A stretch of 64,000 nt of DNA, from the NCBI GenBank assembly GCA_016839555.1, contig JAEOUA010000008.1, positions 1 through 64,000 of the forward strand, read 5' to 3'. Below the pieces are notes generated by a model, which saw only the letters and a program-made list of their open reading frames with translations, made no database searches and had not been told where the DNA came from. The stretch comes from Promethearchaeota archaeon (GTDB lineage Archaea > Asgardarchaeota > Lokiarchaeia > Sigyniarchaeales > SOKP01). Positions 4,863 to 54,566 of this stretch are shown piece after piece (the stretch's first letter is position 1; the number at the start of each line of letters is the position of its first letter). Made by a program: the position numbers and the translations under genes.

Positions 4863-5408
4863 ATGTCTACAACTAAAAGAAAAAGTAGACTTCATAAGTG
4901 TTTAATTTGTGATTATGATTTATGCACTGGTTGTGAAATCTGCGAAAGTGTATGCTCTTTTGTTCACGATGCTGAATTCAATCCAATTAACACAAGAATT
5001 CATAGAGTGCGAATTGAACCCGTTTTTAACATTGCTTTAGCGTGCCAGAAATGCGAAGATGCACCATGTATACGAGCTTGCCCAGAAAAAGCCTTAGATA
5101 AAGATGAAGAGGGTTCTGTTTTAGTTGATGAGGATAAATGCAATGGCTGCGGATTTTGCATCCGTGCATGCGATTTTGGTGTAATCTCACTCCATTTAGA
5201 TACCCAAAAGGCGCTCGTCTGTGATCTATGTGAAAATATGAGAGAAGAGTTTATTGATCCTGAAGTTGGGAAACCTGAACCTCAGTGCATAGAATTGTGC
5301 CCACGAGAAGCTATATCATTGAAAACTGTTGAGCAAATAGGTGAAGAGACCAGAATTGATGCCGTTAAACGATTATTTGGGGAAATGTTAAAAGAATATG
5401 AAAGTTAA
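4863..5408 (+). CDS. 4Fe-4S dicluster electron-transfer protein (DmsB/NrfC-like)
   Basis: CTGCEICESVC, CQKCEDAPCIRAC, CNGCGFCIRAC, CDLC...CIELCP motifs. Confidence 0.9.
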   Translation: MSTTKRKSRLHKCLICDYDLCTGCEICESVCSFVHDAEFNPINTRIHRVRIEPVFNIALACQKCEDAPCIRACPEKALDKDEEGSVLVDEDKCNGCGFCIRACDFGVISLHLDTQKALVCDLCENMREEFIDPEVGKPEPQCIELCPREAISLKTVEQIGEETRIDAVKRLFGEMLKEYES

Positions 5409-5685
5409 TCCCTAAAATTGCTTTTTTTTCTTTTTTATTTTATATCTTTATTATCTTTTATTTTCAATTCATTTATTTTTGAGTTAATTACTAAAAAAAA
5501 ATCAAATAATTAGAAAATAAATCATAAGCCATTTTAAAAATTTAAGTTGACCTTTAAGTTTTTTAATTAAGCATAATCCTTTAAAAAATAAATTATTCTT
5601 AATGAATAATTATTAAGAATTAAGGACAATTTTTTTTTCTAATAATTCATTAATCTAATTAAGAATTTTTTAAAATTAAAAATAT

Positions 5686-5997
5686 TTGGAGGTTTTAACA
5701 ATTTCAATCACACTTAATGTTAATTATGGTCCTCCATTCGATCGATATACAAAAAAAACCAAAGAAATTTTAAAAGTACAACAAGAAATCCAAATCGAAG
5801 AACTAATTTCTCTCCTACAGCAAAAATATGGAGAAGAATTTAAAGAGAATATTTGGAACCAAAAAAATCCCTCAGATTTTCATGGACGTCTCTCCATTGT
5901 GATTAATGGAAGAGCTTTTCGAGATGAAAACTTTTTAAAAAAAGAATTAAAGGATGGAGATAAAGTGTGGCTTATCCATTATTTTTATGGAGGGTAA
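5686..5997 (+). CDS. MoaD/ThiS/SAMP-family ubiquitin-like protein; likely true start ATT 5701
   Basis: IVING...LKDGDKV..YFYGG with C-terminal di-glycine; SD GGAGGT at 5688-5693. Confidence 0.85.
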   Translation: MEVLTISITLNVNYGPPFDRYTKKTKEILKVQQEIQIEELISLLQQKYGEEFKENIWNQKNPSDFHGRLSIVINGRAFRDENFLKKELKDGDKVWLIHYFYGG

Positions 5998-6069
5998 AAT
6001 CTCTCAAACTTCCTTTTTATTTAAACCAAATTATTAAAACTACTAATTATCAATAAGGAGTGATAGAAT

Positions 6070-6426
6070 ATCAAAAAACTTAAATTTAAAATAAGTATAC
6101 CTCTCTCAGGATTAGAAAAAAGTAAAGAATTCACTATAAAAGTCAAAGATGATGCCACATTTATAGAAAGCTTAGCAATGGTAGATAAATATATTAATAA
6201 TCATTCTAAAGAATCAATCTTTCCAATATATGACCAATATATTCACAATTATTTACAATTATTTATTGATTTTACACATGAAAAGATTTATGAGGATGTT
6301 GCTGTAACTGCGTATGCACCGAATGAAAAAGGGCAGTTCATGAAATTCAATCCAGTGGGAGATAATATCGAATTTAATTTATTCCCTAACTCTGAAATAT
6401 ATCTCCAGCCTGATGCGGGTTGTTGA
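6070..6426 (+). CDS. Putative beta-grasp/ubiquitin-like protein ending in PDAGC
   Basis: Frame open from 6067 (IKKLKFKISIPLSGLEKSKEFTIKVKDDATFIESLAM...); SD AAGGAGTGAT just before ATC 6070; follows the MoaD-like gene. Confidence 0.55.
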   Translation: MKKLKFKISIPLSGLEKSKEFTIKVKDDATFIESLAMVDKYINNHSKESIFPIYDQYIHNYLQLFIDFTHEKIYEDVAVTAYAPNEKGQFMKFNPVGDNIEFNLFPNSEIYLQPDAGC

Positions 6427-6687
6427 TGAGACAAGTTTAAACCACGATTAGACATTAAAGAATTTAAAAAAATTATTGCCAAAAAATATGGAAAAGAAAA
6501 TAAATATTTCGCCCATTATTTTAAAAAAACAAAAAAATAGAATGAAATCTTTCAGAAAATATTAGTGAAAGATTGACTGAAGGTATGTGACCTTTATGTT
6601 TGTCAAAAATTAGTTATACTTATTATTTTTACAAAAAAGATAATTCAATCATAAGCTTGAATAAAAAGAATAAAAAAATAGACAAGT

Positions 6688-10808: not shown

Positions 10809-12062
10809 TTAAAAGTATTCATTTTTAATTCTCATCAGAGAAGCATCTATTATAATTAGCCCGCCAAGTATTATGAATGTATACATCAAATTCCAAGTTA
10901 CTAATAATCCAATAATAGGATAAAGAATTGCACGTAAGAGACTGCTAAACATATTTATGGTACTTAAAACAGTTGCTCTATCGTCAATTTTTATTTGTTT
11001 ATTGATTGATTCGATAAAAAAAATCTTTCGAGAAAAACCAAGACCTATAATTAATAACATTAAAATAATACCTATTGATTTTACCAATGTTAACCCCAGT
11101 AAAATAAAGCAAATCCCTGGAATGATCGTATAAATACGGATTAAGAGACTCTTATTTTTAATGTTGGTTCCTAGAGTAGGAACTATATTAGTAAACACCA
11201 CCTGGGAGATAGTCATAGCTGCGGAAACAAATCCAAAATATATCAAATCAATTTCAACTAGTTCTAAGTATGGTTGATATGTCCATATTAAAAAAAATAC
11301 AATTACTTCAAGAAAAATATACTCAAATGCGAAAATTCGAAGCCTTTTTGTATTTTTTAATTCCTTAAAACCGGAAATAATGACTTCTTGATATTTTTTT
11401 TGCCTTGTTTTGATTATGAATTGATTTGGTTCTTTAATTGTAAGGGATGTTATTGTTGCTAAGAAAAATGGAACTACCATTATAAACATTACAAATGGAA
11501 GTGAAATCAATTCTCCGATTATTGACCCTATAGGTGCTGAAATAAAAATCCCTATAAGCAATGAAGATTGAATTCGTGCCATTTTTATATTAATTTTATT
11601 CTGTAGGCCTATTTTTTTTAATGAATCATAGACTATCGCTTGATCGGTTCCCGATATTGAAGCCTGTGAAAAAGCCCATAAGGTCTCTCCTATTGCAAAG
11701 ATAAAAATATTAGGATAACTTGAATAAATTAACGCTGCGAGCACATTTGAGAGACCGCCTAAAAATAATAGAGACTTTCTGCTAATCATATCTGCAATAG
11801 CGCCACATGGAATTTCAAATATCAAAATCATAATTGTAAAATAACTTTCTAAGCACATTATTTCAAAAAAGCTCAGCTTACCCCATTGAGTAAAGAACGG
11901 AATAAGGACTCCAGAAATTAAATGAAAGTTTATTAAAAACTGAAATAGATATAATTTTTTGATATTCGTTTTCCATATTTTTAGATTTTCCATTGAAGTT
12001 TTTTGATTATAATTTGAATTATGCTCTAAAGAGCCACTCTTCTTATTTTCTTTTTCATTCAT
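10809..12062 (-). CDS. MFS transporter
   Basis: ~12 hydrophobic segments; EIPCGAIADMISRK MFS motif A. Confidence 0.9.
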   Translation of the reverse strand: MNEKENKKSGSLEHNSNYNQKTSMENLKIWKTNIKKLYLFQFLINFHLISGVLIPFFTQWGKLSFFEIMCLESYFTIMILIFEIPCGAIADMISRKSLLFLGGLSNVLAALIYSSYPNIFIFAIGETLWAFSQASISGTDQAIVYDSLKKIGLQNKINIKMARIQSSLLIGIFISAPIGSIIGELISLPFVMFIMVVPFFLATITSLTIKEPNQFIIKTRQKKYQEVIISGFKELKNTKRLRIFAFEYIFLEVIVFFLIWTYQPYLELVEIDLIYFGFVSAAMTISQVVFTNIVPTLGTNIKNKSLLIRIYTIIPGICFILLGLTLVKSIGIILMLLIIGLGFSRKIFFIESINKQIKIDDRATVLSTINMFSSLLRAILYPIIGLLVTWNLMYTFIILGGLIIIDASLMRIKNEYF

Positions 12063-12793
12063 ATTTTTTTCAAATCCAATATTTCACATATTACAGGTTT
12101 TTAAGATTTTTTTGAATTCATTATCTAATTTTATATAGACCTAGAAATTTATGTAATATTTTCTTAGAGAGAATATTATAACGAGAATGCATCAAATTAA
12201 ATAAAGAAGTGAATCAGCAAGGTCGAAAAAAGTTAATCCGAAGATTATTCAATGTGTCTATTTTAATATTAATTTTAGTGGAACAGGAGTTTTAATATTT
12301 ATAATATTGATGGCATAGAAATGAAGAGATTGAACTTTCATAATAATTAAGGTGGTATTCTTTCTCATATGTCCAACTCTTTTTCTAAGCATGATACTCA
12401 ACTAAAATTTTAATTAAATTTATAAAATGCTTATTTATATTTAAAGATATTCTTTAAAATGAATTTTTGCGGGAGAAAAATGGGATATTTATACTTTAGT
12501 CTTTGAAAAAAAGTTGGTTTTAAAGGTTTTTAAAGAAATTATCACATTTGATCAAAAAATCTTATTTTAATAATTGAAAAATGAATAATTCTTTAATTAT
12601 TCCATTGAAATGCTATGTTATGAGTATCTATATATATTAATTATTTTAAGTATTCAGAGAGATTTTGATAAAGATTAATCTTTAAAACATTGTAATATTT
12701 CAAAAATTACAATATAACACTAATAATAAAAATAAAAAGGAATTATTCAATCTCAAAAATATTGGAGGTTGTATTAAAGAAAAGGTGGAAAAA

Positions 12794-14755
12794 TTGTCTG
12801 AACAACAGACCAACGATAAACCTAAAGTGGGAGCCTTTATTTGTAGATGAGGAATTAACGTTGCCGGAACTGTTGATGTCCCAAAAGTTGTTGAGGAAAT
12901 CGATAAATTAGAAGGTGTGAGTGCTTTTGAATATCTAAATATGTGTACTTCTGGTGGCTCTGAATATATTCAGGAACAGATTAAGGAAAAGGGACTGGAA
13001 CGCATTGTTATAGCCGCTTGTACTCCCCTCACTCATGAGCCAGTATTTATGGATATTTTGAAGCAAGCAGGATTACCGCAAAGATATTTAGAATTTATTA
13101 ATATTAGAGAACATTGTTCTTATGTCCATCAAGATCCCGCCATTAGAGAAAAAGCTACGCAAAAAGCAATCGAACTTGTAAAAGCAGGAATTTCCAGATC
13201 ACGCTTATTGGAAGAAGTTCCTACAAAAACAGTACCAGTTACTCCGACAGCTTTAGTTATTGGTGGAGGAATTGGAGGAATTTCAGCAGCAATCGATTTA
13301 GGGAATGAGGGATATAAGGTCTATTTAGTAGAAAAGAACACTACGATAGGAGGGAGAATGGCCCAGCTTGATAGAACCTTTCCAACAGATGATTGTTCAA
13401 TATGAATTCTGGGTCCATTGATGCTCGAAGTGGAGAGAAACACGAATGTTGAAATTTTATCTTATAGCGAAGTAGTCAAGGTTGAGGGCTACATTGGTAA
13501 TTTTAAGGTACAAGTAAAGCGTAAGGCTCGATATGTTAATGAAGGGTTATGCACTGGATGTGGTTCCTGTACTGAAGTATGTCCCATATATGTTCCTAAT
13601 TATTTTGATGAAAATCTTTCCGCTCGTAAATGTATAGATATTGCATTTGCACAAGCAGTTCCTGCTATTTCAAATATAGAGCGAAACTCGTGTGTGGAAT
13701 GTTTTGCGTGCGTAGACGCTTGTGATAATGAAGCAATTGATTTTAGTCAAAAGGACGAAATAATTGAACTGGATATTGGTACAATATTAGTTGCGACTGG
13801 TTGGGACTTATATCAAGGGGATGATTATGGCTATGGTAAATTTGAAAACGTAGTCACTCAAGTGCAATTAGAAAGGATTCTTGCGCCAAATGGTCCGACA
13901 TTGGGACATTTGAAACGTCCTTCCGATAGAGAACGCCCTAAAAGAATATTATTTATTAATTGCGTGGGTTCAAGAAACTTAAATAGTAATGAGTATTGTA
14001 GTGTCGTATGCTGCAATTTATCAGTAAAAAATTCTAAACTGATTAAATCAGAATATCCTGATGCAGAAATAGTCGTAGCTTACATCGATATGCGATGCGG
14101 AGGTAAAATGTACGAAGAATATTACCGACGAGCTAGAAATGCAGGAATATTATTCGTAAAAGGGTTAGTGGGAAAAATCGAGGAAGATCCAGAAACGAAA
14201 AATATTCGAGTACAATTAGAACCAGTAGGATCGGATACCATTATAGAGAAGGAATTTGATATGGTGGTATTATCTTCTGCCTCATTACCCTCTCAAGGAA
14301 CCAATGAAATCGCAAAAGTAATGAATATCGAAAAATCACCAGATGGCTTTTTAAAGGAAGCACATCCACGGCTTGATCCTATTAGCACCAAAGTCCCAGG
14401 CGTATTTATCGCAGGGTCTTGTCAAGGACAAAAATCAATTGATCTTACTGTGAGTCAAGCGAAAGGAGCAGCATCTAGCGCAAGTATTCCTATGCATCAT
14501 GAAAAATACGTAATAGAGTTAATTCGTGCCAAACCTATTGATGAGCGATGTGCAAAATGCTATAAATGCATACTAGCGTGTCCCTATAGTGCTATTTCGG
14601 TAAACGAACAAGGATTAATTGAGGTTGATCTTATCAGTTGCAGAGGATGTGGAATTTGTGAAGCGCAATGCCCATCTAAAGCAATAGAATTAACACATTA
14701 TAAAGATAATCAATTTATGGCATATTTAGACGAAATATTGCCAATTATAGGTTAA
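12794..14755 (+). CDS. hdrA: Heterodisulfide reductase subunit A, selenoprotein with two Sec (TGA 12848-12850 and 13403-13405), ~653 aa
   Basis: One continuous frame: KVGAFICR[TGA][10 protein letters not shown]...VIGGGIGG (FAD)...TFPTDDCSI[TGA]ILGPLM...; both TGA sit at HdrA Cys positions (CxCG and DCxxC motifs); ferredoxin motifs; SD AAGGTGG before TTG; ends TAA. Confidence 0.93.
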
Positions 14756-14768
14756 AGAGGCTAAAATA

Positions 14769-15191
14769 ATGGAAGATAATATAAAGATAGTGGCTTTCCT
14801 CTGTCGGAAATGAGGATATGGAGGAGCTGATATGGCTGGCACAATTCGTGCCCAATATCCAACATCTCTTAGAACTGTAATGGTACCATGCACGGGTCGA
14901 GTCGATCCTGACCTTATAATGCGAGCATTTGGTCGTGGATCTGATGGGGTATTAGTTGTGGGATGATATCCCGGCGAATGCGATTACGAAAATGGAAATT
15001 ATTTCGCCTATAGATTAGTTGATTATTTAAAAGAAGTAATGGAATCGATTGGAATAGAATCCTCACGACTTCGAATGGAATTTTGTAGTTCTGCAGAAGG
15101 ACAGAAATTCCAGCAAATTGCGACTGAATTTCATAAGCAAATCGAAAAAATGGGTCCCAATCCTTTTAAAAAAGGCTCCTCAAAAAAATAA
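14769..15191 (+). CDS. mvhD: MvhD/VhuD [2Fe-2S] subunit, selenoprotein with two Sec (TGA 14811-14813 and 14964-14966), 140 aa; absent from the ORF track
   Basis: MEDNIKIVAFLCRK[U]GYGGADMAG...VPCTGRVD...GSDGVLVVG[U]YPGECDYENGN...LRMEFCSSAEG...MGPNP; ends TAA. Confidence 0.95.
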
Positions 15192-15193
15192 TT

Positions 15194-15246
15194 ATGTTTC
15201 CTGATGATATGAGATTAAAAAAACGAGAATCTCATTGAAGAAATGG
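15194..15246 (+). promoter_or_regulatory. Eukaryote-like SECIS element in the 3' UTR of hdrA-mvhD
   Basis: TTTC-CTG-ATGA-T-ATGAGATT-[AAAAAAACGAG]-AATCTCAT-T-GA-A-GAAA: AUGA/GA kink-turn core, perfect 8-bp upper helix, A-rich apical loop, lower TTTC/GAAA helix. Confidence 0.88.
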
Positions 15247-15372
15247 TTTGTGCCATTAATGAACATAAAGTAATAAATTTGTAATAAAAAAGTAGTAAAA
15301 ATAACTGTAAAGTTAAAATATTTAATCAAAATAACGTGCAAATTCTAACTTTATAAATTGAGTTGGACGTAA

Positions 15373-16515
15373 ATGGAAGTAAAAGCACAATACTTAATAA
15401 TGGAAAAAGATTTCCCCGGTTTATTAAAAGCTTTATTAAAGGAGGGAATAGTCGAAAAAATTATCGGAGCAGAGACAAAAGTAAGTAAAAAAACGGGGGA
15501 AGAGGACAGATTTACTGTATCTCCAATATTATGGAGTAACCCCGATGAAATTGAAAAGTTTCCCTTGTCAAATTTAATTGCGTATGGATATGCTCGCACA
15601 GATTCAGCATCAAAATATTTACATAAATCCGTTGATGGAGGAAAAAACCAAAAAATCGGTCTTATTGCAAGGCCTTGTGATATTAGGGCGTTAATTGAGC
15701 TTGCAAAAATCAGACAAGTCAATTTAGATAACTTATTCATTATTGCACTTGAAGAACAAGGTCTCATGTTAGATGTCTCAAAAAACTTAAAAAAAGCAAA
15801 AAATATTGATCCTTCTAAGATTATTAAAGAAAAAGTTGATGATGATGGCATCATTTTTCTCTTTGACGATGGAAAGACTAAAAAGGTTGAAATGGATATT
15901 GCAGATAATTGTTCCAGATGTTCACAAAAAAAGCCAGTGATGGCAGATATTTCTATTAGTAATATAGGATTACCTATTGATTCCAATTCGGTTATTTTAA
16001 AGGTTTATTCTGAAAAAGGTGCGGAATTACTAGAAAAGTCTGGAATAGAGGTAAAAGACTTACCGAATGACATTAAAAACGCCCATGAAGAGAAAATGAA
16101 AGAAATACTAGAAGCCGCTGAACAAAAATGGGCAAAGGATCTTGAAGAATGGAATCAGTTATCGCAAGAACAAAAGATTGAGCAATTGCTCAAATGTACT
16201 ATGTGTGGCATGTGTATACGGGCATGTCCTGTATGTTATTGCGTAGATTGCATATTACAACAAAAAAGGAAGGACAAAAATATTGATAATGTGAGTTATC
16301 AATTAACGAGGATTGCACATGTGGCAGATAGATGTGTACAATGTGGAAAATGCTCCAATAATTGTCCAGTGGATTTACCCCTTTCATTAATTTTTCAGGC
16401 GCTTAAAAAGCAATTTGCAGAGAAATTTAACTATCGGGCGGGCTCATCTGTGGAAGATATTCCCTTCAGAAGTGCGGAAGCAATTAAACAAATGGAATTA
16501 GAAAAGACTGCTTGA
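15373..16515 (+). CDS. FdhB/FrhB-related (FlxC-like) Fe-S protein with C-terminal 4Fe-4S dicluster
   Basis: ARPCDIRAL, NCSRC, CTMCGMCIRACPVCYC, HVADRCVQCGKCSNNCP; follows hdrA-mvhD. Confidence 0.8.
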   Translation: MEVKAQYLIMEKDFPGLLKALLKEGIVEKIIGAETKVSKKTGEEDRFTVSPILWSNPDEIEKFPLSNLIAYGYARTDSASKYLHKSVDGGKNQKIGLIARPCDIRALIELAKIRQVNLDNLFIIALEEQGLMLDVSKNLKKAKNIDPSKIIKEKVDDDGIIFLFDDGKTKKVEMDIADNCSRCSQKKPVMADISISNIGLPIDSNSVILKVYSEKGAELLEKSGIEVKDLPNDIKNAHEEKMKEILEAAEQKWAKDLEEWNQLSQEQKIEQLLKCTMCGMCIRACPVCYCVDCILQQKRKDKNIDNVSYQLTRIAHVADRCVQCGKCSNNCPVDLPLSLIFQALKKQFAEKFNYRAGSSVEDIPFRSAEAIKQMELEKTA

Positions 16516-16658
16516 ATGTTTATATTAAATTTTATTTTTTATATCTTTTTTTATATTTCTATTCGTTTAAATATATTATATTAAAAAGTCTCAGCTTAGT
16601 CTATTCCAATTTGATATATCAAAAAAAATATTATCCAGAAAAGATATTATTTTAATAT

Positions 16659-16892
16659 TTATATAGGAACTATAAAATGAGTTGACGTCCTTTCAATACC
16701 ATCGATACGGTGAATTCTCTTTAAAATCACATTAGAGATCGTTTGAATATCTTTTCCCTCCACTTTTAAAATCGCATCAATTGAACCAGTAACAACATTT
16801 GCCTCTTTTATTTCTTCCATTTCTTTTAATTTTGATATAGCATCCTCTACAAATCCAGCTTCAATTTTTAAAAAAATATAACATTCCGTCAT
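16659..16892 (-). CDS. Stand-alone Lrp/AsnC ligand-binding (RAM) domain protein
   Basis: EANVVTGSIDAILKVE, IHRIDGIERTST. Confidence 0.88.
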   Translation of the reverse strand: MTECYIFLKIEAGFVEDAISKLKEMEEIKEANVVTGSIDAILKVEGKDIQTISNVILKRIHRIDGIERTSTHFIVPI

Positions 16893-54468: not shown

Positions 54469-54566
54469 AGCCAGCGATGGGAATTGAACCCATGATAAAT
54501 GGCTTTCCACGATAGTTGGGTATTTAAGTTCTGCAGGCCATCTCCTTGCCGCTCGGAAACGCTGGC
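54469..54566 (-). tRNA. tRNA-Cys(GCA) with 26-nt intron at 37/38 (intron 54505-54530)
   Basis: Acceptor GCCAGCG/CGCTGGC + U discriminator; anticodon stem ATGGC/GCCAT with CT-GCA-G; T arm ATGGG-TTCAATT-CCCAT; CCA not encoded. Confidence 0.92.

Follow-up and report, generated by a model that had tools for sequence, protein, structure and literature searches.

How can four in-frame UGA codons, spread over two neighbouring genes, all be read as selenocysteine (Sec) when one Sec insertion sequence (SECIS) element is found, and that one lies behind the second gene? This question is raised by the gene pair hdrA-vhuD (vhuD is also named mvhD) in a 64,000-nucleotide stretch of Promethearchaeota archaeon DNA, positions 1 to 64,000 of contig JAEOUA010000008.1 (assembly GCA_016839555.1), hereafter the window. 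From sequence comparison, we conclude that hdrA and vhuD very probably share one SECIS of the Lokiarchaeota type, a kink-turn (K-turn) hairpin past the vhuD stop codon, which would recode all four UGAs on one mRNA. The proposal that one element serves two cistrons, put forward in the original prediction from the DNA alone, is supported by the identity of the sites, the presence of the Sec machinery, the uniqueness of the element, and a layout that all 23 orthologous loci preserve.

A single signal able to recode several stop codons in two frames over a distance of more than 2 kb would stand where the archaeal root of the eukaryotic Sec system has been proposed to lie, and to our knowledge no shared signal of that kind has an experimentally studied counterpart. 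With four UGAs, a single element, and a conserved neighbour gene, the locus offers a clean and compact test case.

Two UGA-containing genes and the element behind them

Once TGA is read as Sec, hdrA (12794-14755) is a single open frame of 653 codons with a TTG start and a TAA stop, and vhuD (14769-15191) a single open frame of 140 codons with an ATG start and a TAA stop, separated by a gap of 13 nt (14756-14768). These are the two continuous frames with two TGAs each, TAA stops, and 13-nt spacing that had been predicted, apart from the implied mvhD start, which was one base off the ATG at 14769. The features of the pair and of the element, all on the + strand, are the following.

12794-14755, +: hdrA, heterodisulfide-reductase-type flavoprotein subunit A (open frame and full-length homology)
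12848-12850, +: UGA/Sec codon 19 of hdrA, in a C-x-U-G motif (structure alignment and orthologues)
13403-13405, +: UGA/Sec codon 204 of hdrA, in DCSIU, the canonical methanogen Sec site (structure alignment and orthologues)
14757-14760, +: GAGG Shine-Dalgarno sequence of vhuD, within the 13-nt gap (sequence)
14769-15191, +: vhuD/mvhD, FlpD-family iron-sulfur subunit (Pfam, PDB, and NCBIfam matches)
14811-14813, +: UGA/Sec codon 15 of vhuD (Cys in 5odc_D; TGA in 24 of 24 sequences)
14964-14966, +: UGA/Sec codon 66 of vhuD (Cys in 5odc_D; TGA in 24 of 24 sequences)
15192-15268, +: whole SECIS element (minimum-free-energy fold, covariance model R1)
15192-15198 with 15262-15268, +: closing helix H1 (minimum-free-energy fold)
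15204-15207, +: AUGA core (sequence, pattern scan)
15208-15216 with 15228-15236, +: helix II (minimum-free-energy fold, covariation)
15217-15227, +: apical loop (sequence)
15237-15238, +: GA 3' of helix II (sequence)
15242-15246 with 15253-15257, +: extra hairpin H3 (minimum-free-energy fold)

The hdrA product matches the HdrA chains 9sfi_A and 5odc_A of the PDB over its full length (E ~1e-200). Its score of 745 bits with the NCBIfam model HdrA2 lies under the cut-off of 1100 and is to be set beside the scope of that model, which also spans a fused MvhD-like C-terminus that is here the separate gene vhuD. The vhuD product matches the FlpD domain (PF02662, E 9e-47) and MvhD (5odc_D, E 8e-40), and scores 146 bits with the VhuD model NF045873, under its cut-off of 215.

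Alignment to homologues, the check suggested in the original prediction, places all four UGAs at Cys or Sec positions of the HdrA and MvhD structures. U19 of HdrA lies where the N-terminal C-x-C-G motif has its second Cys, and U204 at the canonical methanogen Sec site, where 9sfi_A has an X that we take to be Sec. We compared 24 sequences, namely this window and 23 orthologous loci from Promethearchaeota (Asgard) metagenome-assembled genomes (MAGs), and all four positions are TGA in every one of them. At codon 76, HdrA has a third such site, which reads TGA in 6 of the 24 and Cys in the other 18, this window being among the latter.

The published definition of the lokiSECIS (Mariotti 2016, PMC4989117) consists of an AUGA, then a stem of 9 bp and a loop of 11 nt that begins with A's and closes with G, and finally GA (or AA); the first five bases of the loop are A-rich and its final G is usually preceded by A. 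Judged by sequence, the element at 15192-15268 displays every feature of this definition. Its AUGA core begins 12 nt past the vhuD stop, is located immediately 5' of the main stem, and is invariant in the 24 orthologues. Helix II comprises a U.U pair and 8 Watson-Crick pairs, that is, 9 stem positions, which enclose the 11-nt loop AAAAAAACGAG, A-rich in its first five bases and with a final G, and GA follows directly 3' of the stem. The AUGA...GA hairpin with an 8-bp stem and an A-rich loop that had been noticed behind mvhD is thus present. The element has a G+C content of 27%, its fold lies at z = -2.35 relative to shuffles, and covariance model R1, built from the 24 orthologous elements, scores it at 76.3 bits (E 2e-19). 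Helix II is 100% paired across the orthologues, with compensatory changes at 6 of its 8 pairs and a covariation score above all 500 shuffles and all slid controls.

A strict pattern scan over the whole 3.74-Mb genome gave 21 matches, 8 of which have an 11-nt loop with a final G (AG in 7) and an invariant A at loop positions 3-5. These 8 belong to four hdrA-vhuD pairs, vhuU, a Prx-like gene, a HesB-like gene, and the small gene at 6070-6540, and all sit 1-15 nt past, or overlap, the stop codon of a UGA-containing open reading frame (ORF), which places the match above chance. In each of the three other hdrA-vhuD pairs of the genome, too, a single element is present, behind vhuD. In all 23 orthologous loci we find hdrA with 2-4 UGAs, vhuD with 2 UGAs, and a single SECIS past the vhuD stop. 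The strict pattern recovers it in 22 of the 23, at 12-21 nt past the called vhuD stop in 21. In locus L046 the called vhuD frame, with TGA taken as Sec, runs past the element; in L031, where the 3' strand has one extra base, the element was found by inspection only.

A probable shared element for four UGAs, and the alternatives

The distances from the UGAs to the AUGA core are 2,356 and 1,801 nt in hdrA and 393 and 240 nt in vhuD, so that the reach of about 2.35 kb given in the original prediction holds. The key question is whether a second element serves hdrA. Covariance model R1, run over the window with filters off (default filters lost the paralogous elements, which were regained only without them), gave two significant matches, 15189-15272 (76 bits) and 6530-6609 (28 bits), the second being the SECIS of the unrelated small gene at 6070-6540; in hdrA and its 730-nt upstream spacer there was nothing at E < 1. 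A relaxed pattern scan of 12000-15400 revealed no second credible candidate. No SECIS family of Rfam, including RF00031, matched within 12300-16800 at E <= 10, nor did RF00031 match in the window at the gathering score. None of the RNA segments 3' of the UGAs is more stably folded than shuffles (z -0.8 to +2.2), and synonymous sites after all four UGAs are unconstrained among the 24 orthologues (z -1.7 to +0.8). A second SECIS in or upstream of hdrA, which the original prediction had named as a possible refutation, was accordingly found by none of these approaches.

Two other candidates were rejected. The fold and synonymous-site scans speak against a bacterial-type SECIS after each UGA. Genome-wide, 203 long ORFs end in TGA and 191 in TAG; TGA is an ordinary stop here, which excludes its reassignment.

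The genome, judged from its sequence, encodes the complete archaeal/eukaryal Sec pathway, whose components had been listed as a prerequisite: tRNA-Sec, PSTK, SepSecS, aSelB, and SelD. The tRNA-Sec has a UCA anticodon and a long variable arm and adjoins SepSecS (494 bits); it was identified with the Rfam tRNA-Sec model (45.3 bits, just below the cut-off of 47) and by inspection, ARAGORN having made no tRNA-Sec call. aSelB lies 5.5 kb from tRNA-Sec and SepSecS, reaches 238 bits (cut-off 242), and carries the archaeal SelB domain III (aSelB_III). The PSTK homologue, with a KTI12 domain, is the top match at 161 bits, under the cut-off of 290.5, and the SelD gene itself contains one in-frame UGA.

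We picture the mechanism as follows. The hdrA-vhuD pair would be transcribed as one mRNA, possibly together with the frhB-like gene described below, and ribosomes would initiate separately at the Shine-Dalgarno sequence of each cistron. The SECIS would act in cis, at a distance, on all four UGAs, 240 to 2,356 nt upstream of it. It would bind a putative K-turn-binding adaptor, for which L7Ae is the obvious candidate, and by analogy with eukaryotic SECIS elements in the 3' untranslated region (UTR) the two would pass Sec-tRNA(Sec)-aSelB-GTP to a UGA-paused ribosome by looping. In Methanococcus reporters, archaeal 3'-UTR SECIS elements tolerate variable distances, 520-679 nt (PMC9622424).

Several points weigh against a shared, functional element. 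The function of lokiSECIS has been deduced by bioinformatics alone. A lokiarchaeal SECIS showed no activity in Methanococcus maripaludis (PMC11881835), which, as a failure in a heterologous host, is weak evidence. The genome yielded no SBP2 homologue, and its L7Ae family consists of two small ORFs of 136 and 144 codons; the SepSecS, tRNA-Sec, and aSelB neighbourhood holds no obvious SECIS-binding candidate. Finally, the element starts directly past the vhuD stop, and terminating ribosomes would therefore melt H1.

Three other explanations have to be compared with a shared element. The hdrA UGAs might be recoded otherwise, whether by a divergent element within the coding sequence or the 730-nt upstream spacer, or through SECIS-independent insertion, which we consider improbable. 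Three points speak for such a solution: our searches can detect only SECIS shapes already known or structure that is conserved, the hdrA start codon is overlapped by a conserved hairpin, and the SECIS of M. jannaschii fdhA has been reported in the 5' UTR (PMC11881835). However, the start-codon hairpin has neither a K-turn nor a GAA_A motif, the sequence past the UGAs gave no fold signal or synonymous constraint, the covariance-model, pattern, and Rfam searches gave no match for such an element, and an RNAz screen by the 2016 authors revealed no further element (PMC4989117). In addition, the hdrA stop is TAA or TAG and never TGA in the 24 loci, and HdrA in Lokiarchaeota never ends in UGA (PMC4989117). 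This is expected if the downstream SECIS serves hdrA, because it could then also reach a UGA stop.

Still less likely, in our estimation, are separate hdrA and vhuD transcripts, with the hairpin serving vhuD only and HdrA either cut at codon 19 or decaying. Nothing positive supports this, although TATA-like sequences are ubiquitous in AT-rich archaeal DNA and an internal promoter is conceivable. Against it, the 13-nt gap contains the Shine-Dalgarno sequence of vhuD, and the gap ranges from -41 to +19 nt in the orthologous loci, in several of which the two genes overlap. A truncated HdrA is incompatible with a frame that stays intact and 51-70% conserved over more than 630 codons past the first UGA in 24 genomes, which also rules out pseudogenisation of hdrA. 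The hairpin might, lastly, belong to a different kind of K-turn RNA, for example a C/D-box-like sRNA, a site for regulation by L7Ae, a terminator, or a processing signal. The weak Rfam match to the C/D-box snoRNA SNORD79 (25.7 bits, E 0.57) points this way, but it arises because UGAUGA...UGA imitates C and D boxes, lies far under the gathering score of 47, and comes without a D'/C' box or guide region. Moreover, all 8 genomic elements are directly behind UGA-containing ORFs, and the like applies to 42 loci of the small gene's family described below (the strict pattern shows the element in at least 22 of the 31 scanned), and we regard this last explanation as very unlikely, the least probable of the three.

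Neighbouring features and side observations

Three further features flank the pair, again on the + strand.

12784-12788, +: Shine-Dalgarno-like GGTGG ahead of the hdrA TTG start (sequence; orthologues keep AAGGTG here)
12796-12810, +: small hairpin GUCUG-N5-CAGAC over the hdrA start codon (conserved stem)
15373-16515, +: frhB-like gene with an FrhB/FdhB C-terminal domain and 4Fe-4S, a possible third cistron (Pfam)

The start-codon hairpin has an identical stem and a variable loop in the 12 of 12 orthologues displayed from a 23-sequence alignment. Codons 1-15, within which it falls, show the strongest synonymous-site constraint of hdrA (z = 4.1), and our impression is that the codons of the hairpin are atypical for this AT-rich genome. 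The hairpin may regulate initiation. The second-highest constraint of hdrA is found at codons 634-648 (z = 2.8), the 3' end that overlaps the vhuD ribosome-binding site.

The frhB-like gene is separated from vhuD by a 181-nt spacer that contains the SECIS element. Of the 23 orthologous loci, 22 have this gene on the same strand, its start lying about 85-100 nt past the SECIS in 21 and farther downstream in locus L035. Gene order thus indicates that the SECIS may lie between cistrons of a three-gene operon (hdrA-vhuD-SECIS-frhB-like) rather than in a terminal 3' UTR. The original prediction spoke of a 3' SECIS after both genes, and its position past vhuD stands.

Around the lokiSECIS core we observe two extra helices. 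H3 occurs 2-5 nt past the core GA in all 8 genomic elements and in the orthologues, often with a UGC or UGY loop, and H1 pairs bases just past the stop codon with bases beyond H3, which results in a three-way junction. The loci considered were 15192-15268 and 6530-6609 of the window and, from our set, L023-L028, L030-L052, and L054-L096. The combined H1 and H3 geometry of the 8 paralogous elements outperforms that of shuffled flanks (Fisher p = 7e-5), and across 46 elements the mean pairing is 9.2 bp, compared with 5.2 bp in shuffles. Pairing of H3 reaches 87% in 30 elements of the small gene's family, and 3 of its 6 pairs show compensatory changes. Speaking against the junction, H3 taken by itself does not reach significance for stem length in the 8 paralogues (Fisher p = 0.07), and in a fixed-column alignment of that family H1 pairing amounts to only 47%, for which reasons we treat the junction, moderately supported by sequence, as a side observation. 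It is a doubtful but conceivable extension that Loki-type SECIS elements form k-junction-like three-way junctions whose extra module could dock a substitute for SBP2 or enable intercistronic service over more than 2 kb. The H1/H3 module appears neither in eukaryotic SECIS models nor in the main texts of PMC4989117 and PMC11227280.

In the neighbourhood of the Sec machinery, a Roadblock/LC7-domain gene lies 63 nt past aSelB (G000:C5:407764-409671, equivalent to L102:9764-11671) on the same strand. The Roadblock/LC7 domain family includes known GTPase regulators.

The second R1 match of the window belongs to a small selenoprotein gene with a Cys-Sec-Sec (CUU) motif, located upstream of hdrA.

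6070-6540, +: small CUU-family gene, about 156 residues, TAG stop (frame with tandem UGA and SECIS)
6542-6576, +: lokiSECIS of the CUU-family gene, 1 nt past its stop (pattern scan)

The protein has an invariant Gly-Cys-Sec-Sec motif, encoded with TGATGA at 6424-6429, and a conserved 36-residue tail beyond it. GC-TGA-TGA is present in all 42 complete related Promethearchaeota loci, and the strict pattern finds a SECIS at no fewer than 22 of the 31 family loci scanned. A separate earlier note on 4863-6429 had the protein end in Gly-Cys. Database entries for relatives stop at Gly-Cys as well or show 'WW', the latter presumably from gene calling under a code with TGA as Trp. The protein has no match in Pfam or NCBIfam. 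A first structure model was poor (pLDDT 61), and one based on a 34-sequence alignment reached pLDDT 85.7; the latter resembles beta-grasp (ubiquitin-like) domains, with weak TM-scores of 0.25-0.37. For the conserved first 36 residues there is no ATG, GTG, or TTG start (region 6057-6072; relatives, starts of L054-L096). The codon behind a strong Shine-Dalgarno sequence is ATC in this window, ATT in 19 of 31 relatives, and GTC or TTA in some, a sequence pattern which suggests non-AUG initiation in this family. The CUU family is not among the Asgard and archaeal selenoprotein families listed in the available text of PMC11227280 and of a 2026 review. The flanking neighbours of the CUU gene in one related MAG are a paralogue with three Sec in a U-G-U-U motif (L072:1956-2399) and a Cys-rich ORF of 74 codons that contains four in-frame UGAs (L072:3096-3320); a lokiSECIS of its own follows each of these two, so that small multi-Sec genes appear to cluster. 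Elsewhere in the window, the only Rfam match at the gathering score is a tRNA spanning 98 nt (54469-54566, - strand), a length which suggests an intron.

Comparison with known systems

The element shares with box C/D K-turn RNAs the UGAUGA/UGA pair and the tandem G.A pairs with U.U. It differs in having only a sub-threshold Rfam match and in lacking guide sequences and a second box pair.

The SECIS of Methanococcales and Methanopyrus VhuD serves a gene that also has two UGAs about 50 codons apart, and an AUGA has been reported beside its main stem. By inspection, however, the asymmetric GAA_A bulge and GC clamps of the methanogen type are absent from 15192-15268. Methanogen HdrA has its own SECIS in the model of the 2016 authors (PMC4989117).

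With the eukaryotic type I SECIS the element has in common the AUGA...GA non-Watson-Crick quartet (K-turn), the unpaired A's of the apical loop, and the long-range downstream position. Nevertheless, the eukaryotic model (RF00031) does not match it at E <= 10, and its helix II is shorter. The lack of SBP2 here, in agreement with PMC4989117, is another difference, and the mRNA is prokaryotic and probably polycistronic, with two cistrons served.

The closest system is the HdrA-VhuD pair of Lokiarchaeota. There, every pair has one element only, downstream of VhuD (PMC4989117), and the published conclusion is that the two genes share one lokiSECIS, that it serves as many as six UGAs within about 2 kb, and that both genes probably lie on a single polycistronic mRNA (PMC4989117; PMC11227280). 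The same arrangement is repeated across Asgard MAGs (Huang et al. 2024, PMC11227280). Our locus has the same gene order, a very short or overlapping gap, a VhuD with two Sec, a multi-Sec HdrA including the site near residue 200, a single element just past vhuD, a stop codon other than UGA in every hdrA, and four pairs per genome, and nothing essential differs. By its sequence, it is another genome's copy of an arrangement published in 2016 and 2024 and thus already known; the original prediction had the arrangement right and missed its explicit publication. Relative to the main texts of the two papers, the closing helix with the 3' hairpin and the frhB-like gene behind the element are additional. 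What the present analysis adds to these reports is the negative evidence on hidden elements, the three-helix anatomy, and an unlisted Cys-Sec-Sec gene 8.6 kb upstream.

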